DNA of 64,000 nt from an uncultured Chloroflexia bacterium (GCA_963837425.1 CAWINH010000002.1:129500-193499); one strand, 5' to 3'; counted from the stretch's first letter, positions 6,612 to 61,440 are shown. Program-made: numbers and translations. The notes: generated by a model from the letters alone, not told the origin.

Positions 6612-6650
6612 GGTTGTGACGCGCCGTGCGGAGCCACCGCTCCAACCGTT

Positions 6651-7239: not shown

Positions 7240-7443
7240 AACGGCGATGGTGCGTTCCCTCCCTTATGCCGCTGATCATCGGCCATTCAGTCAAGCGGGA
7301 GCGTCGCAATGTGGAAGTCAGAGCTGACAGCGGTCTGGCAGGATGGAGCGGACCGCGGCATGCCGCGGAGGGAGGAGTGATGTCCGTTACATGTATTGGG
7401 GTGCATGGGCCTCAGGCAGCTTGTCTGTGCTACGCTGTGCCAC

Positions 7444-13841: not shown

Positions 13842-13857
13842 GCCGGGATGGGCTGAC

Positions 13858-20050: not shown

Positions 20051-20090
20051 CGAGGGAGCTCTCCGTTCTTCCCGACGCGTGGCGGCCCGA

Positions 20091-20236
20091 CTGCTCAACC
20101 GCGCTTGCAGGGAGCCTTATCCGGGTGGAATGCGCAGATCGCCCCCGACGTGTCGGCCGCCCACGCTCAACCGGCGCCGTCCTCCCGCGCTCGACGGCGC
20201 GCTGAGCTGGATAAGGTGCAGGGCATGAGCGGTTGG
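20091..20236. repeat. MITE-like element family B, about 150 bp.
   Basis: Terminal inverted repeats tcaaccgcgctt ... atgagcggttg, and internal inverted repeat gagccttatccgggtgga / gagctggataaggtgc. Confidence 0.65.
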
Positions 20237-20407
20237 GGATTGAACGGCCGCTTTGGCTCCCTGGGTACTCAACCGAGCCTCCCAGGAGCGCAATCCAGGA
20301 GCGCAATTCCCGCTGAGGCCGGCGTCCGCGGGGAGCACTACCACCACGCCCGCTCGGGGGCGACCGATAGGCGGGGGCGCGGCGCGCACCGTAAGATCGC
20401 GGACCGG

Positions 20408-21133: not shown

Positions 21134-22113
21134 GCCCCGGCGACCTCTCGGTCCTCGTCCACGAGCTGGAGATACACGTCCTCCAGGGAGTGGCGCGTCT
21201 CGCTGATCGAGAGGACGTCCGCGTTCGCGGCCACCAGGGCGCGGGTCAGAGCCGGGGCCGCGAGGGTTGGGTCCGAGACGGTGACGAGGTAGCCCGCGGC
21301 ACCGTCCTGCCGCCACCCGTCGACCGCGGGGACCTGCGCGAAGAGGCCAGCGGGATCGGCGAGCGGTTGCGCGGTGCGGACCGCGAGGCCACGGGTGAAG
21401 AGGCGGTCGCGCAGCTCATCGGGCCGGCCGATCATCTGCAGCCTCGTGTTCAGGATCGCGACCCGGTCGCAGAGGCGCTCCGCCTCCTCGAGCCGATGGG
21501 TGGTCAGGAAGATCGTCACGCCCCGCTCTCGGAGCCCCTCGATCAGCTCATGGACGTCGCGTCCCGCCGCCGGGTCGAGGCCGGCGGTCGGCTCGTCCAG
21601 GAAGAGGAGCTCCGGGTCGGGGAGCAGGGCGCGCGCCAGGGCCACTCGCTGGCGGAGCCCCTTCGAGAGGCGGCTGCAGGGATCGGTCGCCCGGTCCGCC
21701 AGGTTGACCGCGGCCAGGGCTTCTTCCACCCGCCGGCGGGGGTCGGGAGTCTCGTACAGATCCGCGAAGCATTCGAGGTTCTCGCGGACGGTGAGGCGCA
21801 GGTAGAGGCCGGGCGCCTCGGGCATGATCGCGATCCGGCGCCGGATCGCGACCCCGTTCTCCGGGGTGAGAGGGATCCCCAGGACGCTCGCCGAGCCCGA
21901 GGTCGGGGAGATGAGCGTGCCGAGGGTCCGGACCGTCGTCGTCTTTCCGGCGCCGTTCGGGCCAAGGAACCCGAACACCTCGCCTTGGGCGACCTCGAAC
22001 GAGACGTCGTCCACCGCGACCCGGGCGCCCGGGCCCTCGCCAAATCGCTTCGAGAGATGGTCGACCGCGATGGCCGGAGCCGCGCCGGATTGCTCGCTCA
22101 TGACGCCGGCCAT
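21130..22113 (-). CDS. ABC transporter ATP-binding protein.
   Basis: Walker A GPNGAGKTT, signature LSKGLRQR, Walker B LLFLDEPT. Confidence 0.85.
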   Translation of the reverse strand: MAGVMSEQSGAAPAIAVDHLSKRFGEGPGARVAVDDVSFEVAQGEVFGFLGPNGAGKTTTVRTLGTLISPTSGSASVLGIPLTPENGVAIRRRIAIMPEAPGLYLRLTVRENLECFADLYETPDPRRRVEEALAAVNLADRATDPCSRLSKGLRQRVALARALLPDPELLFLDEPTAGLDPAAGRDVHELIEGLRERGVTIFLTTHRLEEAERLCDRVAILNTRLQMIGRPDELRDRLFTRGLAVRTAQPLADPAGLFAQVPAVDGWRQDGAAGYLVTVSDPTLAAPALTRALVAANADVLSISETRHSLEDVYLQLVDEDREVAGA

Positions 22114-23809: not shown

Positions 23810-24220
23810 ATGGGCGCCGGAAAAGAGGAGGAGCGGGTGCTGGGATCGAGTCACGCGTATTCGGGCTTCTCGGTGGACGACATCGGCAGGGCGAAGGCCT
23901 TCTATGCCGATGCCCTGGGGCTGGAGGTGACCGAGGCCCACGGGATGCTGACCCTGCACCTCGCCGGCGGCGGGACGGTCATTCTGTACCCGAAGGAGAA
24001 CCATCAGCCGGCGACGTTCACTGTCCTGAACTTCCCGGTGCCCGATATCGACGCGGCGGTGGACGGGCTGGCGGCGGCGGGCGTCACATTCGAGCGCTAC
24101 GAGGGGCTCGACCAGGACGAACGCGGGATCGCCCGGCCACCGAAGCCGGAGTACGGCCCACCCATCGCCTGGTTCACCGATCCGGCGGGCAACATCTGCT
24201 CGGTCCTCCAGGACACCTGA
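23810..24220 (+). CDS. VOC-family (glyoxalase/bleomycin-resistance fold) protein.
   Basis: [21 protein letters not shown]...FTDPAGN. Confidence 0.7.
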
Positions 24221-24227
24221 CCGGGGT

Positions 24228-24305
24228 ACGTCGCGCCCGGGATGTCGCGCCCGGGATGTCGCGCCCGGGATGTCGCGCCCGGGATGTCGCGCCCGGGATG
24301 TCGCG
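24228..24305. repeat. Tandem 15-bp microsatellite (gatgtcgcgcccggg), about 5 copies.
   Basis: Read directly from the sequence. It abuts the MITE-B copy at 24308. Confidence 0.8.
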
Positions 24306-24307
24306 CC

Positions 24308-24457
24308 GACTCTTCAACCGCGCTTCTGAGGAGCCTAATCCCGGTGGAGGCGCGAGCGGCACTCGGGAACGATGGGTCGCCACGCTCACGCGGGGGCGTG
24401 GGCACCCCTTGGGAGCCGCGTCGAGCTGGATAAGGTGCCGGGGATGAGCGGTTGAGC
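24308..24457. repeat. MITE-like element family B.
   Basis: Terminal inverted repeats gactcttcaaccgcgctt ... gatgagcggttgag. Internal gagcctaatcccggtgga / gagctggataaggtgc. Confidence 0.65.
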
Positions 24458-24547
24458 AGTCAGGCTGCGCGACGGCCTGCGCGACGCCTGCGCGAGGGGA
24501 TCTGCGCGAGGGGCGCCGCGAGAGCGCTGCACGAGAGGGCGCCGCGA

Positions 24548-27997: not shown

Positions 27998-28148
27998 GCG
28001 TGCGCGCAGCGCACGCATCGGCCATCGGGAGGGCTCCTGGAACTGCCCGAGATGACGCCCCTGGTGCACATTCAGGCCTTCCGGGGCCCGATTCGGGTGC
28101 TTCGGTGTCCGATGTGCACACCTGGCGCACATCGGGACGCGCGGGGAG
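27998..28148. repeat. MITE-like element family A.
   Basis: gtgcgcgcagcgcacgcatcgg ... ttcggtgtccgatgtgcacacctggcgcacatcgg. Confidence 0.7.
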
Positions 28149-30119: not shown

Positions 30120-30265
30120 GAGTGGGTTCCTCGATATGTGTCCGCTCGGCGCTTCGTGGCGCCGGTCGCGTGGTTCTTCCACACTCATGGACGAGATCTG
30201 CGCGCGAATGGATACCAGGCCACCTCGAGGAGTGCGCGATGGAGGTCGCTGGCTGAAGCCTCGGG

Positions 30266-30352
30266 GTGTGCGCCCAGCGAGCGCATCGGCCATTCGGGAG
30301 CCGATTCCGATGCTTCGGTGTCCGATGTGCACACCCCGCGCACACCGCAGGG
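30266..30352. repeat. MITE-like element family A, short copy.
   Basis: gtgtgcgcccagcgagcgcatcgg ... ttcggtgtccgatgtgcacaccccgcgcac. Confidence 0.65.
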
Positions 30353-32175: not shown

Positions 32176-32312
32176 GCGTGCGCCGGGCGCACGCATCGGC
32201 GATCGGGAGGGCTCCGAACTGCCCAGGTGACGCCCCCGGTGCACATTCAGGCCTTTCCTGGGCCGTTTCCGAGGCTTCGGTGTCCGATGTGCACGCCTCG
32301 CGCACATCGGGC
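32176..32312. repeat. MITE-like element family A.
   Basis: gcgtgcgccgggcgcacgcatcgg ... ttcggtgtccgatgtgcacgcctcgcgcacatcgg. Confidence 0.7.
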
Positions 32313-38695: not shown

Positions 38696-38737
38696 GCGCA
38701 GGACTACCTGGCATCACTGCTCGATCCAGGATCCAAG

Positions 38738-38965
38738 TCCCGCTGAGCGGGACGTTTCGCGCAGGAAGAGGCGCTCAGGCGCCGTTTGTCCCGCTCACCG
38801 GGACGTTTCGCGCAGGAGGGCGCTCAGGCGCCGTTTGTCCCGCTCACCGGGACGTTTCGCGCAGGAAGAGGCGCTCAGGCGTAGTTTGTCCCGCTCACCG
38901 GGACGTTTCGCGCGGGAGGCGAGCCTCAGGCGCCGTTTGTCCCGCTGGGTGGTGCGTCCCACAGG
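38738..38965. repeat. Tandem array of four palindromic units of about 51 bp (REP-like).
   Basis: The unit gggacgtttcgcgcaggaagaggcgctcaggcgccgtttgtcccgctcacc is present four times. Junction hairpins are gtcccgctcaccgggac. The units are conserved with no variable spacers. Confidence 0.8.
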
Positions 38966-39034
38966 CGCGGGATGCCAGGCGCGGGAGCCAGCGCCCAGGC
39001 CTGCTTGACGTCCGCCTTATCACGATATATCGTG

Positions 39035-39727
39035 ATGCACCGCAACCCGACGCACGGAGACGCCAACCAGATGTCGACCATTCGTGGCCGTGAGAGGAGC
39101 GATCGCGGCGAGCGACGATCCCACCACCGCCACCTTCACCGCGAGGACCTGCGCGCGTCGCTTCGCGACGTGTTCGGTCCGCTCCGCGAGGGATACGCGG
39201 CGGTCAAGCGGGGCAAGGTCCGCCCGCTGATCCTCGCCGTCCTCCACTCGACGCCCATGCACGGCTACCAGATCATGCGGGTCCTCGAGGCTCGCACCGG
39301 CGGCCGCTGGCGGCCGAGCGCGGGGACGATCTACCCCACCCTCCAGCAGCTCGAGGACGAGGGGCTGGTCCACGCCGAGGTGGTCGATGGCCGCAAGGTG
39401 TATAACCTCACCGATGCCGGGCGGGAGGCCGCCGAGGCATCGCCCCTGACGCGCCATCCCTGGTTCGCCAAGGAGGAGGGCGGTCCCTCGATCGACCTCA
39501 AGCGGCTCGCCGTCCAGGTCATCGGCGCGGCGATCCAGGTGAAGCGCGTCGGCTCTGCCGAGGCGCAGTCCGAAGCGCAACGGATCCTGGTCGAGAGCAG
39601 GCGGCGCCTGTATCGGCTCCTTGCGGATGACGAATCGACCGATGCGCCTGCGGGCGCGGATCTCGAAGAAGAAATGCGTTCGGCCGGCGAATCCGGGTCG
39701 GACGCGACAGAGGAATCGAATTCATGA
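39035..39727 (+). CDS. PadR-family transcriptional regulator.
   Basis: LILAVLHSTPMHGYQIMRVLEARTGGRWRPSAGTIYPTLQQLEDEGLV is the PadR winged HTH. An 18-bp perfect palindrome atcacgatatatcgtgat overlaps the start codon. Confidence 0.75.
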   Translation: MHRNPTHGDANQMSTIRGRERSDRGERRSHHRHLHREDLRASLRDVFGPLREGYAAVKRGKVRPLILAVLHSTPMHGYQIMRVLEARTGGRWRPSAGTIYPTLQQLEDEGLVHAEVVDGRKVYNLTDAGREAAEASPLTRHPWFAKEEGGPSIDLKRLAVQVIGAAIQVKRVGSAEAQSEAQRILVESRRRLYRLLADDESTDAPAGADLEEEMRSAGESGSDATEESNS

Positions 39728-40725
39728 GCACACCCGAAGTTGACGGGTCGGTGATCCGGGCCACGGCCCTCACGAAGCACTTCGGCGCCATCGAGGCGGT
39801 GAAGGGGATCGATCTCGAGGTGCACCGGGGCGAGATCTTCGGCTTCCTGGGGCCGAACGGGGCCGGCAAGACGACGACGATCAGCATGCTCTGCACCCTG
39901 CTGCAGCCGACAAGCGGGCAGGCCATGGTGGCCGGCTTCGACGTCGCGAGCCACCCGGGAGACGTGCGCTCGGCAATTGGTCTCGTCTTCCAGGACCCAT
40001 CGCTCGACGGGCAGCTGACGGCGAAGGAGAACCTCGAGTTCCACGCCTTCGTCTACTCGATCCCCTCGTCCGAGCGTGCCGGGCGCATCGCCGAGGTCCT
40101 CGAGATGGTCGACCTTTCGGATCGGGCGAAGTCGATCGTGATGACCTTCTCGGGAGGCATGCGGCGCCGGCTCGAGATCGCGCGCGGGATGATGCACACC
40201 CCGGAGATCCTGTTCCTGGATGAGCCGACGATCGGGCTCGATCCGCAGACCCGCCGGCACATCTGGGGCTACCTCCGCAAGCTTCGCGCCGAGCAGGGCG
40301 TCACCCTGTTCATGACGACCCACTACATGGACGAGGCGGAGGAGTGCGACCGGATCGCGATCATCGACCACGGCGAGATCGTGGCGCTCGGGACGCCGGA
40401 CGAGCTGAAGGGGATGGTCGGCGGCGACGTGGTGACGATCGCGACGTCCGACAACCCGACCGCCGCCGACGAGCTGCGCGGCACGTTCGAGTTGGAGCCG
40501 ACGGTCGACAACGGGACGATCCGGGTCGAGGTGTCCGACGGCGCCGGCTTCATCCCGCGCCTCGTGCGCGAGCTGAGCGTGCCGGTCACGTCCATCTCCT
40601 CCCACCGGCCGAGCCTCGACGACGTGTTCCTGAAGCTGACGGGGCACGCCATCCGCGATGAGGCGGCCGGATCAATGGATCGGATGCGAATGATGGGCAG
40701 AGTCTGGGGAGGCCGAGGACGGTGA
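39724..40725 (+). CDS. ABC transporter ATP-binding protein, DrrA-like.
   Basis: Walker A GPNGAGKTT, signature FSGGMRRR, Walker B LFLDEPT. Confidence 0.85.
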   Translation: MSTPEVDGSVIRATALTKHFGAIEAVKGIDLEVHRGEIFGFLGPNGAGKTTTISMLCTLLQPTSGQAMVAGFDVASHPGDVRSAIGLVFQDPSLDGQLTAKENLEFHAFVYSIPSSERAGRIAEVLEMVDLSDRAKSIVMTFSGGMRRRLEIARGMMHTPEILFLDEPTIGLDPQTRRHIWGYLRKLRAEQGVTLFMTTHYMDEAEECDRIAIIDHGEIVALGTPDELKGMVGGDVVTIATSDNPTAADELRGTFELEPTVDNGTIRVEVSDGAGFIPRLVRELSVPVTSISSHRPSLDDVFLKLTGHAIRDEAAGSMDRMRMMGRVWGGRGR

Positions 40726-41627
40726 GCACCGAAATGAGCACACAGGATACGACCGCGCTGACCGGTGCCCGTCCGGCATCGGCCCGACGCCGGGCGAGCG
40801 GTCTGGCCGGCACCCTGCGCGGGATCTACATCGTCTGGTACCGCGACATCCTCCGCTACTGGCGCGACCGGGTGCGGGCCATCGTTGGCCTGGCCCAACC
40901 CCTCCTCTTCCTCGTCGTCTTCGGCGCCGGGCTGGGGTCCTCGCTGGGCGGCTCGTTCGGCGGCGGCGCGGCCGGGGCGGGTGGATTGAGCTACGCCCAG
41001 TTCGTCTATCCCGGTGTCGTGGGCATGGCCGTCCTGTTCAGCGCGATCTTCGGCGCCATGTCCATCGTGTGGGACCGCGAGTTCGGCTTCCTCAAGGAGA
41101 TCCTGGTGGCGCCCATCGACCGGTCGGCGGTCGCCATTGGCAAGGCGCTGGGCGGCGCAACCCAGGCGATGTTCCAGGGCGTCGTGCTGCTCGTGCTGGC
41201 CCCGTTCGTGGGGGTCACGCTGAACGTCGGCTCGGTCCTGCTCCTCCTCCCGTTCCTCTTCATCCTGGCCTTCTCGCTGTCGGCCATGGGCGTTGCGATC
41301 GCGTCGCGGATGAAGTCGATGCAGGGCTTCCAGATCGTCATGAACTTCCTGATGATGCCGATGTTCTTCCTCTCCGGGTCGCTCTTCCCGCTGACGGGCG
41401 TGCCGAACTGGATGGCGGTCCTGGGGCGGTTGGACCCGGTCTCGTACGGGATGGATCCGCTGCGGCGGATCGTGCTGGGCGCGACGCTGCCGGCGCAGGC
41501 CGTGGACAAGCTGGGCCTCACGATCTTCGACCAGGTCCTGCCGATCGGGATCGAGGCGCTCATCCTCCTCGCGTTCGGGGCGGTGATGCTGACGATCGCG
41601 GTCGTGAACTTCCGCCGTCGGGACTGA
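40722..41627 (+). CDS. ABC-2 type transporter permease.
   Basis: Six TM helices. Overlaps the ATPase gene by 4 nt. Confidence 0.8.
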   Translation: MSTEMSTQDTTALTGARPASARRRASGLAGTLRGIYIVWYRDILRYWRDRVRAIVGLAQPLLFLVVFGAGLGSSLGGSFGGGAAGAGGLSYAQFVYPGVVGMAVLFSAIFGAMSIVWDREFGFLKEILVAPIDRSAVAIGKALGGATQAMFQGVVLLVLAPFVGVTLNVGSVLLLLPFLFILAFSLSAMGVAIASRMKSMQGFQIVMNFLMMPMFFLSGSLFPLTGVPNWMAVLGRLDPVSYGMDPLRRIVLGATLPAQAVDKLGLTIFDQVLPIGIEALILLAFGAVMLTIAVVNFRRRD

Positions 41628-41754
41628 GGGAGCGCCGGGGAGTCGGCTCGCGAGGTCGCAACCCGCGCCGCCACTTGTCGCCACGCGCCGTCGGGGAGTC
41701 TGGGGTCGCCCTGTCCCGTCCGACGGGGGTGGGTAGGCGTCCTGGATGAGCCGC

Positions 41755-42170
41755 GACCCGCCGACTCCTCAACCGCTCTGCAGCGGCGCGGTATCCGGCG
41801 CGGGCGGGCGTCACGACCCTCTGACTCCTCAACCGCTCGTCAGCGGCGCGGTATCCGGCTCGGGTGGCCGTCACGACCCTCTGACTCCTCAACCGCTCTT
41901 CTCCGGCACGCTATCCAGATCGGCGGCAGGTCGAGCCGGTCGCGGGTGATCACTGCACGCTCAGCTCGGCGGGCGATGCGTTGGGGAACTCCCCCGGGAG
42001 CTGGATAACGCTCCTCCAGAGAACGGATGACAAGTCGGCACGTCCGTAGGCGGGTGCTGCGGCCGATGCGACTTACGCGGCCGATGCGACTTACCGGGCC
42101 GATGCGACCGCGGCGCTGGTGCGCCGCCGCCCTAATGCTTATCCCGTTGCTTCAGCAAAGCGCAAGGCGT
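41755..42170. repeat. Composite repeat: about 2.5 tandem MITE-B 5-prime units (gactcctcaaccgctc...gtcacgaccct) plus a shared 3-prime segment. It is a near-identical copy of the repeat at 48515-48845.
   Basis: About 190 bp match the second copy with only two mismatches, and the flanking ccgatgcgac repeats are similar. Confidence 0.8.
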
Positions 42171-42479
42171 AGTGGTCGCCGATCTCCCGAAACCCGACCC
42201 CTCGCTTCGAGCACTTATCGCCGTGGGATCGCCTGCCCATTTGTGTCCGTGACGACGCGCGTGCCGAGGTCGGCGTCGAGGGAAACAGTCAGATCCCGAA
42301 GGGAGAGTTCGGCCGTGCCAGGCAGGGGAATCGGGCATGGCAGCGTCTCGATCTTGACCCGGACCTCGGCGGGCGTTTCGGCGACATTCGTGACTCGCGT
42401 CCAACTACACGGGGCTACGGCGACCTTCACCGCGATGGTGCGCTGGCTGACCGCCGCGTAGGAGTCCAGTTAGGGACCA

Positions 42480-43100
42480 CCACGGTCGAGTTCTGGGCGG
42501 CGAGGAGGATCGCCAGGACGACAAGGACGACCGCGAGCCAGACCTTCAGCGGAATGCGGCGCGGCCGTTTCGATTCCATTCGCGTCCCCTCTCTCGAAGT
42601 CATCGTGGTGCCGGCCGGATCGGAAACTGCCGCAGGTTGGTCGCCCCGCGAAGAACGGCCGGGGGCACGAGCGTCGCCGGTCTCGAGGCCCAGTAGCGTC
42701 GGAAAGGCGGCCTGCCGCCTCCGCGCCGGTTGTGCCGGAAGACGAACTCGTCGAGATAGGCTTGGAGTTGGGCGCGGCTTACGCCCTGATGGGTCCCGAG
42801 GAGCCACTGCTTGAGGTTCCCCCATCGCGCGGTCCGCGAGCGGGACGATATGGGGCATCCCCTTGCGAATGTTCCCCTGGACTGTGGGCTGATGGACGTA
42901 GCCGAGCGACGGCAGCGCCACGAAGCCCGACATCTTGTCAGCGTACATCGTGCTTCCGGCTCGATGTACCGTCGGGCGAAGTCGTTCATCGTGACTTGGC
43001 GGAGGTCGGGGATCACCTCCATCCGGGCCCTCTCCGTGCCACGCCCGCGACGCTCGACTACGACGATCACGAGTGCCGGCGCGGAGAGCGCGCGGCCGCA
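42480..43100 (-). pseudogene. IS1595-family (ISXO2-like) transposase C-terminal remnant, frameshifted.
   Basis: THQGVSRAQLQAYLDEFVFRHNRR is the conserved C-terminal motif. The upstream part is in another frame. There is no N-terminal DDE region and no terminal inverted repeats. Confidence 0.45.
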
Positions 43101-43134
43101 CGAGCTTTGATTTGGAGCCTGGGGAGCGCCACGC

Positions 43135-43986
43135 CTATCCGGTTGGCGTTGGCGTTGTGCTCGATTCCGGCGTTGGCGTTGGCGTTGGCGTTGCGCTCGA
43201 TTCCGGCGTCGGGGTTGGGGTTGGCGTTGGCGTTGCGCTCGCTTCCGGCGTCGGGGTTGGCGTTGGCGTTGGCGTTGCGCTCGATTCCGGCGTTGGCGTC
43301 GTGGTCCCGGTTGCCACAGGATCGGGAATAGGACTCGGGCTTGAGGCCGGGCTTGGAGACGTGCTCGGGCCTAATTGAGGGTCCGGGTTGGCCGTGGGAC
43401 TCGGCTCGGGGTGTGGCGTTGGGCTCGGGTCCTGCGGACGGAGTGGATTGGGCACCGTCAATGCGGCGGTGGCGCCGTCAACTGCATCACTCATGGATGC
43501 GGTCTCACAGCCGATGAACGTGTCATGCGCAGTGCCGTCGCATGCATCGGAGCCGGCTCCGCCATCGAGGAGATCCTTGCCGTTGCCGCCGGAGAGCGTG
43601 TCGTCACCTTCTCCGCCCAGCAGGACGTCCTTGCCGTTGCCGCCGGAGAGCGTGTCGTCACCTTCTCCGCCGACGAGGCAGTCCTTGCCGTTGCCGCCGG
43701 AGAGCGTGTCGTTGCCGCCGAGGCCGAAGATGAGCGCGCCGCCGTTGGCGCCGCTGATCGTGTCATCGCCTGGCGTCCCGACAATGATGTCGCTGAAGGT
43801 CATGCCCGCGCATTCGGTGGGCGTGGAGGGAGGCGGCGCGGCGACGTGGAGGGTGAACACCTGCAGGGGGGACGCGCTGATGACCAATGAGGCTGCCGAC
43901 GCCGTGACTGCGACGATCAGCGTGGCAAGGCCGAGCACGCTCGCCACAAACCAACGCAGGGTGCGACGATCCAAGCCGCGCCTCAC
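43135..43986 (-). CDS. Secreted RTX-type calcium-binding repeat protein with a Thr/Pro-rich tail.
   Basis: Four GGNGKDxLxGGEGDDTLSG nonapeptide-type repeats and a (TPTP)n C-terminus. Confidence 0.7.
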   Translation of the reverse strand: MRRGLDRRTLRWFVASVLGLATLIVAVTASAASLVISASPLQVFTLHVAAPPPSTPTECAGMTFSDIIVGTPGDDTISGANGGALIFGLGGNDTLSGGNGKDCLVGGEGDDTLSGGNGKDVLLGGEGDDTLSGGNGKDLLDGGAGSDACDGTAHDTFIGCETASMSDAVDGATAALTVPNPLRPQDPSPTPHPEPSPTANPDPQLGPSTSPSPASSPSPIPDPVATGTTTPTPESSATPTPTPTPTPEASATPTPTPTPTPESSATPTPTPTPESSTTPTPTG

Positions 43987-44747
43987 TGCTTCGCGACCTC
44001 ACCTCGCTGGCCGGTTGAGGCATGCCGCGCGGCAATGCCGTTGGGCTTGCGTCCCGCGCGTGACCTGCCCGCCTTGGGCGGTCCCCCACCAAGCACCCAG
44101 ATCCCGGCGATGCCGCCGAGGAGCAACGCAAGGGCCATGGGTTGTCGGAGGATCAGGAGCAGGCGACCGCTGCCCGGCAGTTCCACCCAGCTCCTCCCGA
44201 GGATGCCCGCCTGGCCCGGGCGCCACGGATCGGGGCCGCTGTTGTTATCGCCTTGCATGATGAATCCGTTTTGTGCGTCACCGCCGACGATGCGGTGGAT
44301 CACCACGGCTCCCGCCGACGGCTGCCCCTCAGGAACGCGATATGCAACCACGTCGCCTACCTGGTAACTATCCAATTGTCGAACGACGACGAGGTCCCCG
44401 GTGTGGAGGTTCGGCTCCATGCTGACGCCGGAGACGACGAGATACGACGCTGGACCGCCGAGCGCCATCGGTCGCAGGAAAAAGAACCAGGCGACGAGGA
44501 GCGAGGCCCCGGAGATGAGGAGTGCCGTCCGCAATGTCCGTCCGAGGCCGGATTGACGTCCGACGGCCACGCGCGGTGCGAGAACGCGTTGCCGGCCCAG
44601 CGCGCTCGACATCATTCGACGTGTGGCTTCGCTCGTCAGACGCCCGTCGCCCGGTCGTCCGCTGTCGAAGTCGAGACCGCACATTCGGCAGAAGCGGAAC
44701 GAACCGATGCGGGCCTCACCGCAGTCTCTACAGAACAAGTCCGGCAT
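43983..44747 (-). CDS. Signal peptidase I, SipW-like (S26 family), with an N-terminal zinc-ribbon.
   Basis: SGVSMEPNLHTGDLVVV peptidase motif, and CRDCGE...CRMCG. Overlaps the downstream RTX gene by 4 nt. Confidence 0.7.
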   Translation of the reverse strand: MPDLFCRDCGEARIGSFRFCRMCGLDFDSGRPGDGRLTSEATRRMMSSALGRQRVLAPRVAVGRQSGLGRTLRTALLISGASLLVAWFFFLRPMALGGPASYLVVSGVSMEPNLHTGDLVVVRQLDSYQVGDVVAYRVPEGQPSAGAVVIHRIVGGDAQNGFIMQGDNNSGPDPWRPGQAGILGRSWVELPGSGRLLLILRQPMALALLLGGIAGIWVLGGGPPKAGRSRAGRKPNGIAARHASTGQRGEVAKQ

Positions 44748-44843
44748 GTCGCGCCTTGGGTGCGTCGGGATGACCCGTTGGCAAAACGGGTGGGACCCGC
44801 GGCCCTGTCCGGACGCGAACAGAGCCACGGGCATAGTCGGGGA

Positions 44844-45404
44844 CTAGACGCCGATCACGATACGGACGCCCGCGATGATCTCGCCCGGCACTCCACATGG
44901 GTAGGTGGGGCTCGTGAGCTGGTCATCTGCCGGATGCACGTAGCCAAGCGCGACCTTGGCTGTCGGCGAGCCGATCGGGTAGGGGGTCACGCTGATGGGC
45001 GTGCCGGGGGCTCCGCAATCGACCGAGGGCGAATGGTTAGCGCCCACGATGTGGCCCGCAGCATTCAGTGCATAGAAGTAGAGGTTCTGGCCATCGCATG
45101 TCGGGTCGATGTTGGAGACCTGGGCCGACGTCACCGTCCCGGTGTAGTCGGCGTTCCAGACTACCGTGAGCGGAGTGGTCTGGCAGTTGGTCAGTGACAC
45201 GGCGCCGACCTGGATGGTGCCCGGGTCATCGATCGGCAGGGTGGACGCCGACGCCAAGACGGCGCCGAAGACCATCGTGCCCACCACAGTCGCCAAGAAG
45301 AGCCTTCTCACGTTGTTCCTCCTTTGGGCCAGGGCGCCGGGCTTGATGCCGGGGTGAGCGCATGAGGACATCTGGGCCAGCAGCCTCCCCTCGATCCATA
45401 ACTT
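44844..45404 (-). CDS. Exported protein with a SipW-cognate-type signal peptide (TasA/camelysin-like class).
   Basis: RRLFLATVVGTMVFGAVLASASTL, then a beta-rich domain. It lies immediately upstream of the sipW-like gene. The start codon is uncertain. Confidence 0.5.
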   Translation of the reverse strand, partial: KLWIEGRLLAQMSSCAHPGIKPGALAQRRNNVRRLFLATVVGTMVFGAVLASASTLPIDDPGTIQVGAVSLTNCQTTPLTVVWNADYTGTVTSAQVSNIDPTCDGQNLYFYALNAAGHIVGANHSPSVDCGAPGTPISVTPYPIGSPTAKVALGYVHPADDQLTSPTYPCGVPGEIIAGVRIVIGV

Positions 45405-45615
45405 CACGTTTGCGATGACGAGTTCGTGCTCTCCCCAGCTGACCAACCTAGGGGTCGCTCCCGCGCGGGCCATCCGGGATTCCACGGAATCAGCTACGGG
45501 TTCGGGCCTCAGTACGCGTGTTGTGAGATCTGGCGGGCGCACGGAGACGGGAACCAGTGCCGTGATCCGTACTTCCCCTGATGCCGCTCCTGGCGGCTCC
45601 CCCTACCCTCGCCGC

Positions 45616-46080
45616 ATGGAGCGCTTGCACCCTCGCGACAGCGGGGCCGATGCCCAGGTTTCTGGGGACGTGCCGGCAGGCCCGGCGGCCGATGAGGCGG
45701 CGGCGCGGGAGGCCCGCGAGCGCTATCGCAACGGACCGATGCCCGCTGTCCGAGCCGATCCGGAGATCGCAGCACTGCTGCAGCCCGGCGAGGCGGTTGT
45801 CGCGGTGCACCCGTCGGTCGTTCTCGAGCGCCGGACGCCGAAGCCGGAGTCCGCCGCTCCGCGCGGCCCTGCGGGCGAGCTCCACGTGACCTCGCGGCGT
45901 CTGCTGCTGATCGGCCGGGATCGCCTCTCTATCGACCTCGAGGAGATTCTCGAGGTGGGCCTGTCGGGAGAATGGCTTCTCCTGGTCCTGCGCGAGGGTC
46001 GCGGTGTCGCTCTGCGCGCGGCGCAGCCGCGTCTGCTCAGGGTCGAGATCGCCGCGGCGCGGGCTGCCGCCAGGGCCTGA
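45616..46080 (+). CDS. Hypothetical protein.
   Basis: ORF starting MERLHPRDSG. No motif recognised. Confidence 0.35.
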   Translation: MERLHPRDSGADAQVSGDVPAGPAADEAAAREARERYRNGPMPAVRADPEIAALLQPGEAVVAVHPSVVLERRTPKPESAAPRGPAGELHVTSRRLLLIGRDRLSIDLEEILEVGLSGEWLLLVLREGRGVALRAAQPRLLRVEIAAARAAARA

Positions 46081-46086
46081 TCGCGG

Positions 46087-46746
46087 TCAGCCGGGCTCCC
46101 GGTAGCGTCCCGCCGCCTCTGCCCGGTTCCGAGCGTCAAGCTTGTGCAGGATGCTGCTCACGTGCGTCTCCACCGTACGGGGCGAGATCGTGAGCGATGC
46201 GGAGATCTGACGGTCCGTGAGACCTTCCGCCAACAGGCGCAGGACCTGCATCTCGCGCATGGTCAAGCGTGCCAGCGCAGGGTCGTCCGTCGTGGCTGTA
46301 CGTCGCGAGGTCTCGACCAGGCGGTGGACAACGCGCGCGGCGATCCCACGAGGCATGGCCAGCTCACCGGCGGACGCGCTTCGCACCGCACGCTGCAGCG
46401 CATCGGGCGAGAGGTCCTTCGTCAGGTACCCGCTCGCTCCGTAGCGAAGCGCTTCGATGACATGACGATCCGCCCTCGAGACGGTGAGCATGACGATCCG
46501 CGCATCCGGAAGCCGGGGTGCCAGCTCATGCACGAGGCTCACGCCGTCCATCCCCGGTAGGTCAATATCGATGAGGAGCAGGTCGGGTCGTACCACCGGC
46601 GCGAGGGAAAGGGCCTCCTCCGCGGTTCCGACCTCGGCGACCACCTCGAGGTCCACTGCGGAAAGGGCTTGACGGACCGCTGCGCGCACCAGGGCGTGGT
46701 CGTCGACGACCATGACACGGATGTAACCGGGGGCGACGGCGCGCAT
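46087..46746 (-). CDS. Two-component response regulator, NarL/LuxR family.
   Basis: Receiver domain (VMVVDDHALVR...DLLLIDIDLPGMDG) plus LuxR HTH (LTMREMQVLRLLAEGLTDRQIS). Confidence 0.85.
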   Translation of the reverse strand: MRAVAPGYIRVMVVDDHALVRAAVRQALSAVDLEVVAEVGTAEEALSLAPVVRPDLLLIDIDLPGMDGVSLVHELAPRLPDARIVMLTVSRADRHVIEALRYGASGYLTKDLSPDALQRAVRSASAGELAMPRGIAARVVHRLVETSRRTATTDDPALARLTMREMQVLRLLAEGLTDRQISASLTISPRTVETHVSSILHKLDARNRAEAAGRYREPG

Positions 46747-46748
46747 GG

Positions 46749-48233
46749 CTACCCCGACGCCCCTGGCGCCGGCGCCGCATGTGGCACCGGGAGAAGGACG
46801 CGGATTCGCGTGCCGTCATGCGGGTGCGAATCTATGCGGAGCTCTGCGCCGATGATCGCCGCCCGCTCCCTCATGCTGGAGAGGCCGTAGGCATCCTCAC
46901 CGAGCTGTTCGGGATCGAACCCGCGCCCGTTGTCTCCCACCGTGAGCTCGAGATGGCCATTCTCGATGGCGGCATGGACCCGGACGAAGGTCGCGTCCGC
47001 GTGTCGGCGAACGTTACTCAGTGCCTCCTGGGCAATCCGCACGAGTTCGGCTTCTGCCCGAGCAGTAAGGCCCGAGGCACCGTTGGGGCAATCGATCTCG
47101 GCTCGCAGGCCGAATCGATCGGCGAAGTCATCGACATACCGAGCGATCACGTCCCAGAACGGGCCTGCCGGCTGGCCGGCGATCCGCAGCGCCGTGACGG
47201 CCTGCTGCGCCTCTGCCAACCCGGCATCGATGGCGTCCCCCAGCTCGCCGACCAGCGCAGCGGCATCCGGCCCGAACCCCGCAAGGCCCGCCAGTCGGCC
47301 GGCCTTCAGCTTCGCCAGCCAGAGATTCTGCGCCAGACCATCGTGCAGTTCGCGGGCGAGATGGGCACGCTCCTCCAGGGTGGCCCGCTCGGCATCGAGC
47401 GCTCGGAGGCGTCTAAGGTCGAGATTGGCGGTCCGCAGGCCTGCGAGTGCCACGCCGACCTCGGTCTCGACGCCGACGAAGAGGCAGAGGTCGAACACGA
47501 GCCAGAGGAAGTTGGCGGTGGTCACCAGCCCGGTCTCGGTGTGTGGGGAGACGGCCACGTAGGCCTGGGCGAAGGCACCGAAGACGAGGCCCAGCGCCAG
47601 CCAGGCATGGCCCAGCGACCCGTATCGGCGGTAGAGACGGCGCGAGAGGGCCGCGGCCCACAGGAGCAGAGCCGCCACGGAAACCTGCAGGGCGGCGCCG
47701 AGGAGCGTCGAGCTCTGCACAGAGCCAGGGCCTGCCTTCGAGGCGAGCTGGGGGAGGGATCCGGCGTGTGCCGCCACGTACGCGATCACAACCAGGGCCA
47801 CGGCTGGCGCGACCACGACCAGCCATGGGCGCCCCGGACGGAGACCCCGCAGTGAGGCGAAGCCGCCGACCACGAGGAGGATCGCGGCCATGAGTCGCGA
47901 CGCCGTGAAGACGTAGAGGTTGGCTTGCCCGAGCTCGCCCAGCGGCAAGCCGGCCGACGCGTCGAGGCCGCTCAGGATCGAGGCCACGTATTGGCCATCG
48001 CTCGTGGCCAGGACGAGGAACGCTGCCGCCTCGAAGAGGGCGAGTGGTGCGGCCAGCTGGCGGTAACGGACCCAGCCCAGGACCGCAACCGAGATGGCGA
48101 CGAGCGTCGCGAGGGTCTCGAGAACAAGGTCAAGACCCGGGGCGGAGATGCGGATGTTGACGCCAGGAGCGACGAGACCCGCCGCAAGCCCCGCAGACAA
48201 GGCAGCGGCCGCCACGACCATGACGGCATCCAC
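46749..48233 (-). CDS. Sensor histidine kinase (HisKA_3, NarX/LiaS-like) with a polytopic N-terminus.
   Basis: H-box ARELHDGLAQNL, HATPase C-terminus, and a 3-nt gap to the response regulator gene. Confidence 0.8.
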   Translation of the reverse strand: MDAVMVVAAAALSAGLAAGLVAPGVNIRISAPGLDLVLETLATLVAISVAVLGWVRYRQLAAPLALFEAAAFLVLATSDGQYVASILSGLDASAGLPLGELGQANLYVFTASRLMAAILLVVGGFASLRGLRPGRPWLVVVAPAVALVVIAYVAAHAGSLPQLASKAGPGSVQSSTLLGAALQVSVAALLLWAAALSRRLYRRYGSLGHAWLALGLVFGAFAQAYVAVSPHTETGLVTTANFLWLVFDLCLFVGVETEVGVALAGLRTANLDLRRLRALDAERATLEERAHLARELHDGLAQNLWLAKLKAGRLAGLAGFGPDAAALVGELGDAIDAGLAEAQQAVTALRIAGQPAGPFWDVIARYVDDFADRFGLRAEIDCPNGASGLTARAEAELVRIAQEALSNVRRHADATFVRVHAAIENGHLELTVGDNGRGFDPEQLGEDAYGLSSMRERAAIIGAELRIDSHPHDGTRIRVLLPVPHAAPAPGASG

Positions 48234-48514
48234 CGATGTCGACCGGTTGGCAACCAGGGAACGCTCTCGCGGAATCTCCGAGATCGGATGCCCTCCCCAT
48301 GCATCGATCCGACGAATGGCTTATCGCTCGGATCGAGATGCGTTGTCAATAGGCAACACCCGCTCGGCCCTGCAAGACATCGATTCTCGGCCCAGGCATA
48401 GGGCGCCGACATACGCGCGATGAAGGCCGCGGTCCGCCCTGAATGCCCAGAATCGCCCGGAGACTATCGGGGTAGCAAGGTCCGCTGCCGGTGTCCTCCG
48501 TATGCCGTTGCCCT

Positions 48515-48845
48515 CCGTCGACTCCTCAACCGCTCGTCAGCGGCGCGGTATCCGGCGCGGGTGGGCGTCACGACCCTCTGACTCCTCAACCGCTCTTCTC
48601 CGGCACGCTATCCAGATCGGCGGCAGGTCGAGCCGGTCGCGGGTGATCACTGCACGCTCAGCTCGGCGGGCGATGCGTTGGGGAACTACCCCGGGAGCTG
48701 GATAACGCTCCTCCAGAGAGCGGATGACAAGTCGGCACGTCCGAACACGGGCCACACGGCCGATGTGCCGATGCGGGTCACACGGCCGATGCGGCCGATG
48801 CGACCGATGCGCTGGCGCGCCGCCGCCCTACGTCCACATGAGCCC
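48515..48845. repeat. Composite repeat, the second copy of 41755-42170, in direct orientation.
   Basis: See 41755-42170. Here there are about 1.5 tandem 5-prime units. Confidence 0.8.
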
Positions 48846-49997
48846 GTACGGATGCGGCGAGCTGATCCGTCGCTCTCCATGGAAGCGGTCGAAGCCGAAG
48901 ACCGCGAGCTCCGGCGCTGCATCGGGCCCATCGAGCAGCATCCGCGCCAGCGACTCGCCGACCGCGGGGGCGGTCTTGAAGCCGGTCCCACTGAATCCGC
49001 AGTCGAGCCACAGGCCCTCCGGCCCGTACGGTGCGGCAGGGCCGATGATCGGATGCTGGTCGGGCGTGATCCCGTCGACGCCGTAGTGCGAGCTCTGCAA
49101 CCCGCCCTCCGCGAGCCGCGGCAGCCGCTGGGTCACCCGATCCACGGCCCGCTCGGTGAAGTCCGGCGACCCGTGATGGACCTCGTCCGGCGTGTCGAGC
49201 ACCGGGTTCCCGTCCTCGAGCCCGACGAGCACGAGGTGGGCACCCTCGGGCCGCACGTACATCGCCCGGCCGAAATCGATGAAACCGGGGAACGAGCCGA
49301 ACCCCGCCGGCCGCGCCACGAAACACGTGTCGTGGACCCAGGCCCGGATTGGCAGCTGTAAGCCGATCTCCGCGGCGAGCTGGCCCGACCACGCCCCGGC
49401 GGCGAGGACCACGGTCTCGGCGCGGATCTCGCGCTCCGCGCTGCGCACCCCGACGACCCGGTCGCCCTCGAGCAGGATGGTCGTCGCCCGCTCGGCCGCG
49501 CGGACGGTTGCGCCGTGGTCGCGTGCCGCGGCGATCAACGAGGCGGCGGCGGTCGAGGGGTCCGCGTAGCCGGACTCCGGCTCGTACGCGGCGAGCTCGA
49601 CGTCGTCGACCATCATCTCCGGCGTCAGCCGCGCGATGTCATCTGGCCCGATGAGGATCGTCGGTATCCCGAGGCCCTGCTGCATCTCGACGTTGGCGCG
49701 CAGCTGCGGCGTCAGCTTGGGGGGCACGAGCTGGAGGAAGCCGGTGCGGGTGAAGCCGCAGTGACCGCCGACGGCATCGGCCCAGTCGCGGAAGTAGGCG
49801 AACGAGCGCCAGGCGAGCGACGCGTTCTCGGGCAGGTCGTAGTGCATTCGCACCAGGCCTGACGAGCGACCGGTGGCGTTCGTCACGTCGGAGCGGTTGA
49901 GGACGACGGGCTGCCTGCCCGCGCGGGCCAGGTGAAAGGCGAGGCTGGCGCCCTGGACACCGGCGCCCACCACGATGATGTCGGCGGTCTCAGTCAT
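48828..49997 (-). CDS. FAD-dependent oxidoreductase (DAO family, sarcosine/glycine-oxidase-like).
   Basis: ADIIVVGAGVQGASLAFHLA is a Rossmann GxGxxG motif. About 389 aa from the ATG at 49997. Confidence 0.8.
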   Translation of the reverse strand: MTETADIIVVGAGVQGASLAFHLARAGRQPVVLNRSDVTNATGRSSGLVRMHYDLPENASLAWRSFAYFRDWADAVGGHCGFTRTGFLQLVPPKLTPQLRANVEMQQGLGIPTILIGPDDIARLTPEMMVDDVELAAYEPESGYADPSTAAASLIAAARDHGATVRAAERATTILLEGDRVVGVRSAEREIRAETVVLAAGAWSGQLAAEIGLQLPIRAWVHDTCFVARPAGFGSFPGFIDFGRAMYVRPEGAHLVLVGLEDGNPVLDTPDEVHHGSPDFTERAVDRVTQRLPRLAEGGLQSSHYGVDGITPDQHPIIGPAAPYGPEGLWLDCGFSGTGFKTAPAVGESLARMLLDGPDAAPELAVFGFDRFHGERRISSPHPYGLMWT

Positions 49998-50067
49998 TCG
50001 CGCATGGTGACAGGTCGGCCAATGGCCCCGGACCTGCCAACCGGCTCCTTCGGGTAGGCTGGCGCAA

Positions 50068-50703
50068 ATGAGCCCCGACGACGAGCCGATCCCCACCGCG
50101 CTCGAGCGCGCGGCCCTCGGCTGGGACGAGGTGTATCGCGATGGGAGCCCGCCGTGGGACATCGGCCGGCCGCAGCCGGCCTTCGTGCGAATCGCCGATG
50201 CGGGTGAGGTCGCCGGCCCCGTCCTCGACTGTGGCTGCGGAACCGGCGAGCAGGCGTTGATGCTCGCGGAGCGGGGGCACGAGGTGCTCGGCATCGACCT
50301 GTCGCCGACCGCCGTCGCGACCGCGCGCCGCAAGGCGCAGGAGCGTAAGCTCAAGGCCACGTTCGCGGTCGGCAACGCGCTCGATCTCGGCAGCCTGGGG
50401 CGACGCTTCGCGACGGTCATCGACTCCGGCGTCTTCCATGTCTTCAACGACGCGGACCGAGCGCGCTACGTGCTGAGCCTGGCCTCGGTGCTCGACCCCG
50501 GGAGCGTCATCCACCTCGCCTGCTTTTCGGAGCTGACCCCGGGCACCGGCGGTCCGCGCCGGGTCACCCAGGCCGAGCTCCGCGCGGCGTTCGCCGACGG
50601 CTGGGAGGTCGACCGGATCGAGGGAGCCCGGTTCGAGGTCCGCGACCCGTTTGGCGCAGCGACGCCGCCCCACGCATGGATGGCGCGGATCGTCCGACGC
50701 TGA
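50068..50703 (+). CDS. Class I SAM-dependent methyltransferase.
   Basis: VLDCGCGTGEQ motif I, plus downstream motifs. Confidence 0.75.
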   Translation: MSPDDEPIPTALERAALGWDEVYRDGSPPWDIGRPQPAFVRIADAGEVAGPVLDCGCGTGEQALMLAERGHEVLGIDLSPTAVATARRKAQERKLKATFAVGNALDLGSLGRRFATVIDSGVFHVFNDADRARYVLSLASVLDPGSVIHLACFSELTPGTGGPRRVTQAELRAAFADGWEVDRIEGARFEVRDPFGAATPPHAWMARIVRR

Positions 50704-51472
50704 TCTGGCCCACCTCGAAGAGGAGCGGCGACTCGCGAACTCCCCGCAGCTCGTGGGCGCCCAGCGCACGGACCGTCACTCCGGCGGGCAACTCGTCGCC
50801 GAGCGCGGAGAGGGTCGCACCGGAGACGACGGTCTGGCGAGCGCCCGCCACCCGGCAGATGCGATTCACGGCGTGCACCGCCAAGCCGACGTAGCCCGCA
50901 TCGGTCAGGGTCGGGCGTCCGGAGTGGACGCCAATCCGGACGAGGACGGTCGCGCCTCGCGGCCACGCGTGATCGGCGAGGGCGCGGTGAATGGCCGACG
51001 CGGCGACGAGCGCCCCGGACGGCCGCTTGAAAACCGCGAAATACTCGTCCGCGCGGGCATCGACCTCCTGGCCGCCCGCGTGTCGAACGATCGTCCGCAG
51101 GTGGCGCCGCAGCTCGGTGAGGAGCGCCGCGTAGGCGTCCCCGAGCTCGTGGAGCAGGCCCGTCGAATCCACGATGTCGGTCATCAGGAAGGTGACCGCT
51201 CCGCTCGGCAGCGCGCGCGGGCCGGTGACCCGCAGTTGGCCTTCCATGAAGCCGACCGGGACGATCCCGTACCTGCGTGCGGCTCGCAGCAGCCGGCCCC
51301 TCGCCCGATCCCGGGCGGCCTCATCCTCGAAGAGGACCTGGTTGAAGCGGGCGAGCGCGTTTCGAACGTGCGCCTCGTCGTGAATCGGGAGCCGCCGCCG
51401 GCCACCCGAGTCAACGTAGGCGAACGCGCTGTCGCGCAGCGATCGTCGATTCTGCGCGCTGAGCTGCGGCAT
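50564..51472 (-). CDS. Class III adenylate/guanylate cyclase with an N-terminal extension of about 70 aa.
   Basis: VTFLMTDIVDSTGL...YFAVF...RIGVHSG. The low-complexity C-terminal tail overlaps the convergent methyltransferase gene by 140 bp. Confidence 0.7.
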   Translation of the reverse strand: MPQLSAQNRRSLRDSAFAYVDSGGRRRLPIHDEAHVRNALARFNQVLFEDEAARDRARGRLLRAARRYGIVPVGFMEGQLRVTGPRALPSGAVTFLMTDIVDSTGLLHELGDAYAALLTELRRHLRTIVRHAGGQEVDARADEYFAVFKRPSGALVAASAIHRALADHAWPRGATVLVRIGVHSGRPTLTDAGYVGLAVHAVNRICRVAGARQTVVSGATLSALGDELPAGVTVRALGAHELRGVRESPLLFEVGQISVGRSAPSMRGAASLRQTGRGPRTGLPRSGRPPSRRRTPRGARPG

Positions 51473-51565
51473 GCGTCGATGGTACCGCCACGAGCGCGCG
51501 TGTTAGCCTCGATGTAACTGGCTCGGGGAGTCCAGCGTCACGATGCAGCAGGAGGGTGCAACCGC

Positions 51566-51952
51566 GTGACGACGTTCACGGTGAATCGCCGACAACAGCT
51601 CTCGTTGGCCGTGTGGCCGGTCGTCGCATTTGCCTGCTTTGCACTGGGCGGCCTTCGCGCGCTCATCGTCTCTCTCTCGCAGGTCGGGGCGACGCCCACG
51701 TTCGGCAGCATCGTGGGCAGCATCGACTGGTCGCGCGACGTCCTCTACGCGATTGCGCTGGCCGCCCCGGCGGGGCTCATTGCGCTGGCCCAAGGCCGCC
51801 TCGAACGCGTGCGGTACGTCGACTCCGCGCTCGTCGCGGTGATCGTGGCGGCCGCGATGCTCGGCGCGCTGTGGTACGCGTACCAGATGGCGCCCGACCT
51901 CGTCGTGGCCAGCGTCGGAAACGTGCCCTCCGCGCTCGCCTCACCGCGGTAA
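51566..51952 (+). CDS. Hypothetical membrane protein.
   Basis: Four predicted TM helices. Confidence 0.4.
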   Translation: MTTFTVNRRQQLSLAVWPVVAFACFALGGLRALIVSLSQVGATPTFGSIVGSIDWSRDVLYAIALAAPAGLIALAQGRLERVRYVDSALVAVIVAAAMLGALWYAYQMAPDLVVASVGNVPSALASPR

Positions 51953-58198: not shown

Positions 58199-58242
58199 CG
58201 GTCCCCGCGGGTCGTGCGCCGAGCGTTTCGCCGGGTCCATCT

Positions 58243-58452
58243 GTCAACCGCGCCCCGGAGGAGCGTTATCCACCTCGCGACGTCATTCGAGCGCGCGGAG
58301 CCGCTGTTGGCGAGCGTGCGACGGTCACCCGCGGCCGGCGCCGCCCGCTCCCGGAGCGGATAGCGTGCCGACCATGCGCGGTTGAACAGTCGGCGGGCCG
58401 CTTCGCGAGCCTGGAGCGGATAGCGTGCCCACCATGCGCGGTTGATGAGTCA
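58243..58452. repeat. MITE-like element family B, with a duplicated 3-prime terminal inverted repeat.
   Basis: tcaaccgcgcc..ggagcgttatcc ... ggagcggatagcgtgccgaccatgcgcggttga, and the last 50 bp are repeated. Confidence 0.65.
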
Positions 58453-61244: not shown

Positions 61245-61261
61245 GCCTCCGGGCGCGGCGC

Positions 61262-61440
61262 CCCACGTCCCGCCCAGCGGGACAAACGGCGCCTGAGGGC
61301 TGCCTCCTGCGCGAAACGTCCCGCCCGAGCGGGACAAACGACGCCTGAGCGCTGCCTCCCGCGCGAAACGTCCCGCCCAGCGGGACAAACGGCGCCTGAG
61401 GGCTGGCTCCTGCGCGAAACGTCCCGCTCAGCGGGACGAG
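61262..61440. repeat. Tandem array of three palindromic units of about 51 bp, in inverse orientation to the array at 38738.
   Basis: cccgcccagcgggacaaacggcgcctgagggctgcctcctgcgcgaaacgtc repeated three times. It is the reverse complement of the 38.7-kb unit. Confidence 0.8.

Follow-up and report, generated by a model that had tools for sequence, protein, structure and literature searches.

We have identified, in the genome sequence of an uncultured Chloroflexia bacterium, a 6.4-kb gene cluster that lies between two near-identical direct repeats and that is absent from a close relative in which a single repeat module occupies the same site. The stretch of DNA analysed, referred to here as the window, comprises 64,000 nucleotides (GCA_963837425.1 CAWINH010000002.1:129500-193499), and positions are counted from its first nucleotide. 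The repeats, R(L) at 41823-42134 and R(R) at 48520-48830, bracket a unique segment at 42135-48519 that encodes a secreted RTX-repeat protein, a SipW-type signal peptidase and a two-component regulatory system. We see about an even chance that this locus is a presence/absence variant in which a native cluster is bounded by direct repeats, the filled state being the older and the allele of the relative a deletion; both the polarity of this change and the recombination mechanism behind it are what we infer. Judged from the relatives of the FAD-dependent oxidoreductase (DAO) encoded next to the cluster, the window can be placed in Candidatus Limnocylindria (Chloroflexota), a widespread uncultured class of soil and freshwater bacteria.

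Anatomy of the direct repeats

Repeat searches and pairwise alignment place the two copies in the same orientation with a period of 6697 bp. Each copy is ~311 bp long, intergenic, and composed of three parts: a 60-bp unit (U2; 41823-41882 in the left copy and 48520-48579 in the right), a 154-bp element resembling a MITE (miniature inverted-repeat transposable element; 41883-42036 and 48580-48733), and a tail of 97-98 nt (42037-42134 and 48734-48830). The MITE-like element's left terminal inverted repeat forms the start of U2. A further solo left-inverted-repeat unit of 60 bp (U1, 41763-41822, plus strand) precedes the left copy only and has a counterpart in the relative. Both tails end in CTA, and in R(R) these three bases are the stop codon of the minus-strand DAO gene. 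The repeat cores, that is unit plus element, differ at only 4 of 214 positions (1.9%), with 58/60 identities in U2 and 152/154 in the MITE-like part. The preliminary description of this DNA had reported same-orientation, near-identical direct repeats with only two mismatches over ~190 bp. This is accurate, its coordinates are right, and the similarity is far beyond chance.

The tails are less alike (76 identities over 107 aligned columns). Their first 10 nt are identical and their last 38 nt match at 35 positions, and the middle is a minisatellite of GCCGATGCG-type short repeats that is arranged differently in the two copies. The boundaries of the repeats are sharp, since Smith-Waterman scores between the sequences outside both repeat ends equal those of shuffled controls. 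Local alignment beyond the ends revealed neither a decayed 3' fragment of the DAO gene nor any other residual homology after R(L).

The source is a metagenome-assembled contig, and short-read contigs do break at these repeats: contig L001 ends 25 nt into R(R), and contig L026 ends 108 nt past the stop codon of the ABC genes on the left. It might therefore be thought that the cluster was stitched between the repeat copies during assembly, or that two strains were merged. However, the four core differences and the distinct tails indicate that R(L) and R(R) represent two different sequences of the genome. In addition, an independent Logan assembly reproduces positions 43683-48544 at 100% identity, including the segment/R(R) junction at 48519/48520, and two chimeric joins would be needed within a source contig of 682 kb. 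We regard such an artefact as highly improbable.

The repeats contain a MITE-like element

A profile built from four copies of the element was used to scan the 64-kb window. Five full elements are present (20089-20242, 24308-24461, 41883-42036, 48580-48733 and, on the minus strand, 58242-58391), together with solo end units, and a 16-mer from the element end has 14 matches in the window where 1.05 are expected. The elements are 150-154 bp long, contain no open reading frame (ORF) of note and are all intergenic, as is characteristic of MITEs, which are non-coding and shorter than ~600 bp. They have imperfect terminal inverted repeats of ~35 nt, with the ends GACTSNTCAACCGC...GGATAA...GCGGWTGA..AGTC pairing together in predicted folds, although folding of the whole element is unexceptional (z = -0.6 and -2.0). 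The ends presumably resemble those of ISL3-type insertion sequences (IS; GGCTCTTC...). At none of the five copies did inspection of the flanks show a direct repeat of 2-10 nt adjoining the element ends, as a target-site duplication would, and no parent or autonomous IS with matching ends is present in the 64-kb window. The family is thus multicopy and short with inverted ends but without target-site duplication, and for this reason we call it MITE-like. It was seen in no lineage other than that of the window. A phage collection contained no match to the repeat, and a scan of viral contigs with a gapped MITE pattern returned three chance matches, all in low-GC contigs.

The three full copies at 20089, 24308 and 58242 are highly divergent inside, with interiors less than ~50% alike, and among the ten pairwise comparisons possible for the five copies R(L)/R(R) alone is near-identical. 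The contrast with the other, divergent copies that had been pointed out previously is therefore real. The copy at 58242-58451 (minus strand) has the same layout of a solo unit followed by an element, but lacks the tail, which identifies the tail as local sequence lying outside the element. Given a local tail and a single near-identical pair, R(L) and R(R) are best explained by a segmental duplication of 311 bp rather than by two transpositions. Two independent recent insertions of an active subfamily, with no causal link to the cluster, might otherwise have been proposed, for the element is multicopy with five full intergenic copies in 64 kb, the pair at 20089/24308 also brackets ~4 kb, and the unit-then-element layout recurs at 58242-58451. 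Yet R(L) and R(R) remain homologous for 97 nt beyond the right inverted repeat, as far as the DAO stop codon (with the 10 identical bases and the 35/38 match at the two ends of this stretch), the other copies have no such extension, no other pair of copies is similar inside, and the empty site of the relative corresponds to exactly one module. Taken together these points make independent insertion very unlikely.

The pair 20089-20242 and 24308-24461 is itself in direct orientation and encloses ~4.1 kb containing a second ABC ATPase gene (~21163-22056, minus strand). The ends of these two copies are ~75% alike and their interiors much less so.

An empty site in a close relative

The relative, L009, is represented by ENA ERZ25039533 contig_63055 (L009rc denotes coordinates on its reverse complement). 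Its proteins are 98.5% (ABC ATPase), 98.6% (permease) and 95% (DAO, P0001) identical to those of the window, and its gene order is PadR, ABC, ABC, 530 bp of intergenic sequence, and DAO, without the 6.4-kb segment. In blastn alignments L009rc 772-4082 corresponds to window 38737-41986 and 4189-7334 to 48817-51923, such that ~106 bp stand in place of window positions 41987-48816. The intergenic sequence of L009 consists of one 60-bp unit, an inserted copy of a different, 51-bp repeat family, and then the diverged right two-thirds of the MITE-like element, which we estimate by eye from the alignment to be ~65-70% identical to the window. The tail contains different short repeats, but GC.GCCCTA is again found beside the DAO stop codon. 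The gene content between the same conserved flanking genes thus differs between the window and L009. A related strain with an empty site and a single repeat copy is what the preliminary description had proposed to look for, and its term 'recombination-prone module' is a fair one for the locus given the allele found in L009. Relatives of the DAO protein in species-representative genomes are at most 74% identical and show no synteny, and so are uninformative about the empty site.

The structure of the empty site bears directly on whether the locus is a composite transposon with a MITE copy at either end, moved as a unit by a transposase acting in trans. Two direct copies with terminal inverted repeats do bracket cargo, and precedents exist in TIME-COMPs (PMC13367494, PMC4133298) and in the NFM2-MITE integron (PMC3184786). 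However, a true pre-insertion site would have neither element nor tail, and the L009 site keeps both; its retention of the MITE-like element argues decisively against transposition of this kind. There is also no target-site duplication at 41762/41763, 41822/41823 or 48733/48734, non-MITE sequence belongs to the duplicated unit at only one of its ends, and the window contains no matching autonomous element. We consider a composite transposon extremely improbable.

The cluster is syntenic in a distant relative

The best non-self match of the histidine kinase (HK) of the cluster is only 67% identical, so that there is no second filled strain to compare. This match lies on ERZ25039549:contig_17557, which also carries orthologous PadR-ABC-ABC genes with a permease 84-87% identical to that of the window. 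The permease on this contig is followed by 9.6 kb (cyclase/AAA regulator, GYD, BipA, BTAD regulator and two small genes) and then by RTX (-), X (-), SipW (-), the hypothetical gene (+), the response regulator (RR; -) and HK (-), matching the window in order and orientation relative to the ABC genes. This synteny favours the filled state as ancestral. No foreign donor is in sight, the best non-self HK match coming from the same relative as the synteny. Long flanking repeats are absent around the contig_17557 cluster, and long direct repeats were likewise not found at the flanks of the clusters on contigs L023 and L024. The L024 cluster adjoins ferric-reductase/ApbE genes, which on contig_17557 sit just upstream of PadR, but, the orientation being different, this lends weaker support. 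The arrangement HK-RR-hypothetical(-SipW) is conserved in many metagenome contigs of relatives, and the hypothetical gene adjoins the HK-RR pair in L013, L014, L016, L018, L020, L021, L023 and L024. A metagenome scan with HK yielded only short contigs, with at most 75% identity, in which the cluster is conserved and the flanks are not covered. Window positions 42100-43140 were searched for traces of the genes lying between ABC and RTX on contig_17557: tblastn gave none below E=0.1, and tblastx gave only compositional noise.

Family searches found no integrase or recombinase domain among the ORFs of the segment. There is no tRNA or tmRNA gene in the 64-kb window, no second IS copy in the segment, and a plasmid collection matched only generic RTX repeats. 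An integrase-mediated island was rejected on the lack of integrase and of tRNA or tmRNA. The earlier suggestion of a small island or insertion is not borne out either, there being no integrase, tRNA, target-site duplication or second IS and the cluster being syntenic in a distant relative. The cluster is best seen as a native, syntenic module of its chromosomal neighbourhood rather than an island, and if it is native then the state of L009 may not be the ancestral one but may have arisen by deletion.

The observations as a whole are in keeping with homologous recombination acting on the 311-bp direct repeats, and a sequence of events can be proposed for such a deletion. The 311-bp intergenic module would have been duplicated segmentally and would now lie on both sides of the cluster. 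RecA-type homologous recombination between the copies, which their direct orientation makes possible, could then pop the cluster out and leave one hybrid module, corresponding to the L009 state. The cluster might return if the excised circle recombined with the module in a single crossover, or through allelic replacement in which repeat and conserved flanks provide the homology. The near-identity of the cores could stem from recent gene conversion or from recent re-import.

Several points weigh against deletion of a native cluster. The sample consists of one empty-site and one filled genome, with the ancestral state resting on one distant syntenic contig, and sequence searches found no relatives intermediate between L009 and contig_17557. 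Nor does the proposal account for the initial presence of a module on either side of the cluster. If both copies predate the split from L009, a homogenising gene conversion must be assumed to account for cores that differ at so few positions. The independent assembly of 43683-48544 stops short of the left inner junction at 42134/42135. Finally, the composition of the segment is mildly atypical. Its GC content is 0.678 against 0.699 for the window, the GC content at third codon positions (GC3) of its genes is 0.75-0.84 against 0.82-0.93, with the ABC, DAO and methyltransferase genes (0.91-0.93) lying above the segment genes, and it falls in the top 9% of windows for tetranucleotide distance.

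Timing of the rearrangement and divergence of the flanks

The synonymous divergence (dS) between the window and L009 is 0.15 for the ABC ATPase, 0.22 for the permease and 0.31 for DAO; for the ABC ATPase and DAO the proportions of synonymous differences (pS) are 0.137 and 0.253, respectively. Set against these values, the 1.9% difference between the cores implies that their common ancestor is about ten times more recent than the split of the strains, and such young cores point either to a recent duplication or integration or to recent gene conversion. The recent duplication proposed in the preliminary description is accordingly tenable for the repeat cores. The flanks have themselves diverged unequally, with identities to L009 of 94-99% on the left and 87-94% on the right. 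Expressed as divergence, this is ~4% over 39100-41400, on the ABC side, and ~10% over 48830-51900, on the DAO side. Unequal divergence argues for different histories of the two flanks, with a breakpoint of recombination at the locus or close to it; in this comparison of two genomes it is suggestive of mosaic ancestry, with exchange by homologous recombination in the flanks.

The minisatellites that follow the ABC stop codon are entirely different in the window, L009 and L026, even though the permeases are 97-98.6% identical. Intergenic minisatellites of this kind, with a 14-nt period (GGGATGTCGCGCCC x6; GGGAGTTCCGCGTC x8 in L026), are found at window 24211-24307 and 41628-41740, at L026 2756-2863 and at L009rc 3690-3790, beside genes whose products are 97-99% identical between strains. 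They adjoin MITE-like copies, and short-read contigs end at them. An early idea that the tail of the repeats is older than the core (71% against 98% identity) was dropped, since equivalent minisatellites differ completely among strains with permeases this similar; the greater divergence of the tails accordingly does not discriminate between the two histories of the cores.

These observations have to be weighed for the possibility that the empty site is ancestral and that DNA carrying cluster and module was recently integrated in the lineage of the window, by Campbell-type or double crossover. The donor would probably have been a related strain, its DNA circular or linear, and the crossover in the module would have duplicated the module on both sides. 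The youth of the cores relative to the strain split is in keeping with this, as are tails that differ more than the cores, which is expected if one came from the donor and one from the recipient. The approximately twofold higher divergence of the right flank from L009 fits donor DNA replacing everything rightwards of the module, the GC3 of the segment is slightly lower, and HK orthologues reach no more than 67% identity in the database while the flanks have relatives at 95-98.6%. Against a recent insertion, the cluster lies 1.5 kb from the same ABC genes, and in the same orientation, as it does at 9.6 kb in the distant relative. By chance such a placement would be expected in ~0.3% of cases (for a genome of ~4 Mb). 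A donor in which the arrangement already existed would escape this objection, but the origin of the arrangement would then have to be explained in the donor. The divergence of the tails, too, requires no two parents, because tail minisatellites evolve very fast in this lineage. We therefore hold a recent insertion to be possible but less probable than deletion of a native cluster.

A bolder version of the deletion scenario is that the 311-bp modules serve as portable homology, forming with an excised circle a reversible, transposase-free presence/absence switch that is kept at population level. This seems to us unlikely. Were it true, a regulated secretion/matrix operon would leave and re-enter the chromosome in an abundant uncultured soil lineage, and the unusual density of MITE-like elements and minisatellites in that lineage would offer numerous sites for cassettes of this type.

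Genes of the segment and its surroundings

Gene content was assigned from family searches and from the gene calls on an identical Logan contig (L001). The left flank comprises PadR (38972-39727), the ABC ATPase (39724-40725) and an ABC-2 permease of the DrrB type (40722-41627, plus strand; TIGR01247, E=3.6e-60). On the right the conserved flank is formed by the DAO gene (48828-49997, minus strand; PF01266, E=1.4e-59), whose product is DAO/sarcosine-oxidase-beta-like.

The left end of the unique segment (42135-42719) contains no recognisable gene, and family searches gave no match there. A possible small gene or pseudogene with a frameshift lies on the minus strand at 42215-42590. In a six-frame reading one of its frames encodes an N-terminal membrane anchor (KRPRRIPLKVWLAVVLVVLAILLAAQ) and the other continues as a beta-rich stretch of 84 residues, with no family match. 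Next comes the remnant of an IS1595 (ISXO2-like) transposase gene (~42720-43080, minus strand), which is 5'-truncated, carries two frameshifts and retains only the C-terminal part of the DDE domain. It matches NF033547 at positions 181-215, and the frameshift-corrected peptide matches PF12762 at positions 39-153 of 153 (E=6e-20). A remnant had been described at the start of the segment; the remnant is genuine, but it lies ~590 bp inside. IS1595 as a functional element was rejected, as only this dead fragment, with PF12762 39-153 and two frameshifts, is present.

This fragment apart, the genes of the segment are intact. The secreted RTX-repeat protein (43135-43986, minus strand; PF00353, E=2.3e-19) has a Pro/Thr-rich C-terminus, and its start agrees with the L001 gene call. 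The signal peptidase I of the SipW/archaeal type (43983-44747, minus strand; also called in L001) scores 67.8 bits with TIGR02228 (cut-off 51.85), but only 28.6 with the SipW-specific model NF046067 (cut-off 190). It is followed by a gene for a 209-residue protein with an N-terminal hydrophobic segment and no family match (44844-45473, minus strand). This protein had been labelled TasA-like, but neither it nor its L023 and L024 counterparts match any family, TasA/camelysin included, in searches of Pfam, NCBIfam and PDB sequences, and the label is not supported by sequence. Its single-sequence AlphaFold model, with a predicted local distance difference test (pLDDT) score of 52, is too poor for a fold search. 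The conserved hypothetical protein of 154 residues (45616-46080, plus strand) is encoded divergently from the regulator genes, namely a NarL/LuxR-type response regulator (46087-46746, minus strand; PF00072 and PF00196) and a HisKA_3 sensor histidine kinase with a MASE3-like membrane domain (46749-48221, minus strand; 100% identical to P0121). The sipW, RTX and NarL-type two-component genes recognised earlier are thus upheld by TIGR02228, PF00353, PF00072/PF00196 and HisKA_3. Rfam gave no match in the window, and a promoter/terminator scan gave nothing above expectation.

Beyond DAO, in the region 50068-51517, the plus-strand ORF for a methyltransferase (50068-50703) overlaps an ORF on the minus strand that has a clear guanylate-cyclase-domain match (50711-51214; E=1e-27 to L025). 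In L009 (414-1871) the gene caller gives a single methyltransferase-containing product of 485 residues on the opposite strand. Probably either one of the gene calls is wrong or the gene in the window is frameshifted.

Two further families of intergenic repeats were observed. The family that interrupts the ABC-DAO module of L009 has a period of ~51 bp and consists of GTCCCGC..GCGGGAC hairpin units ('GAAACGTCCCGCCCAGCGGGACAA') that form arrays; members lie at window 38737-38970 and 61258-61440, at L009 6286-6621 and at L009rc ~3905-4030. The two arrays in the window are inverted, 22 kb apart and 84-90% complementary. The entire locus described here lies between them, and an inversion might be mediated by the pair. 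The third family comprises palindromic repeats of ~90 nt (CCGATGTGCACACC..GGCGCACATCGG), present in both orientations at 13856-14192, 28047-28136, 30260-30349 and 32222-32311.

Comparison with known systems

The locus provides a base-resolved case of a change in gene content between close Limnocylindria strains without dedicated mobile-element machinery. Neither the mechanism nor the outcome will surprise a specialist. The undescribed MITE-like family and the very fast-evolving intergenic minisatellites matter for the assembly and binning of such genomes.

RecA-dependent recombination between direct repeats, such as IS copies, ribosomal RNA (rrn) operons or repetitive extragenic palindromic (REP) sequences, deletes or integrates the segments between them. 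Loci formed by such pop-out and Campbell integration share with ours a dispensable segment between direct repeats of a few hundred bp and the alternation of repeat-segment-repeat and single-repeat alleles, and need no recombinase of an element. They differ in that the repeat here is a MITE-like element with adjacent unique intergenic sequence, not an IS or rRNA operon, and in that activity is deduced from two genomes. With operons of the tapA-sipW-tasA type the cluster shares the SipW-type signal peptidase, whereas a substrate of the TasA/camelysin family was not matched.

Bacterial MITEs such as Nezha and the Correia elements have been reviewed (PMC3184786). Like these, the element described here is short (~154 bp), non-coding, intergenic and multicopy, with imperfect terminal inverted repeats and a variable interior. 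Unlike them, some of its copies are preceded by tandem 60-bp solo units, and there is no target-site duplication and no parent IS in the window. MITEs can also flank larger cargo. In Acinetobacter, excision by homologous recombination has been suggested for an NFM2-MITE-flanked defective Tn402 integron (PMC3184786), and in TIME-COMPs cargo is moved between MITE copies by transposition (PMC13367494, PMC4133298). In both, as here, cargo lies between two direct MITE-like copies. However, those structures have outer target-site duplications and identical MITEs, which is consistent with their transposition as a unit, whereas in our case no duplication is present, the repeated sequence continues past the MITE, and the MITE is retained at the empty site.

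In Neisseria, minimal mobile elements are gene blocks that vary among the closest relatives between conserved flanks, and their turnover is attributed to homologous recombination in those flanks (Saunders and Snyder 2002, per PMC3787668). They lack internal flanking repeats and usually hold alternative cassettes, whereas the present locus shows presence or absence of a single block between 311-bp direct repeats. In both systems, however, a variable block lies between conserved flanking genes, and a step in flank divergence is seen here too.

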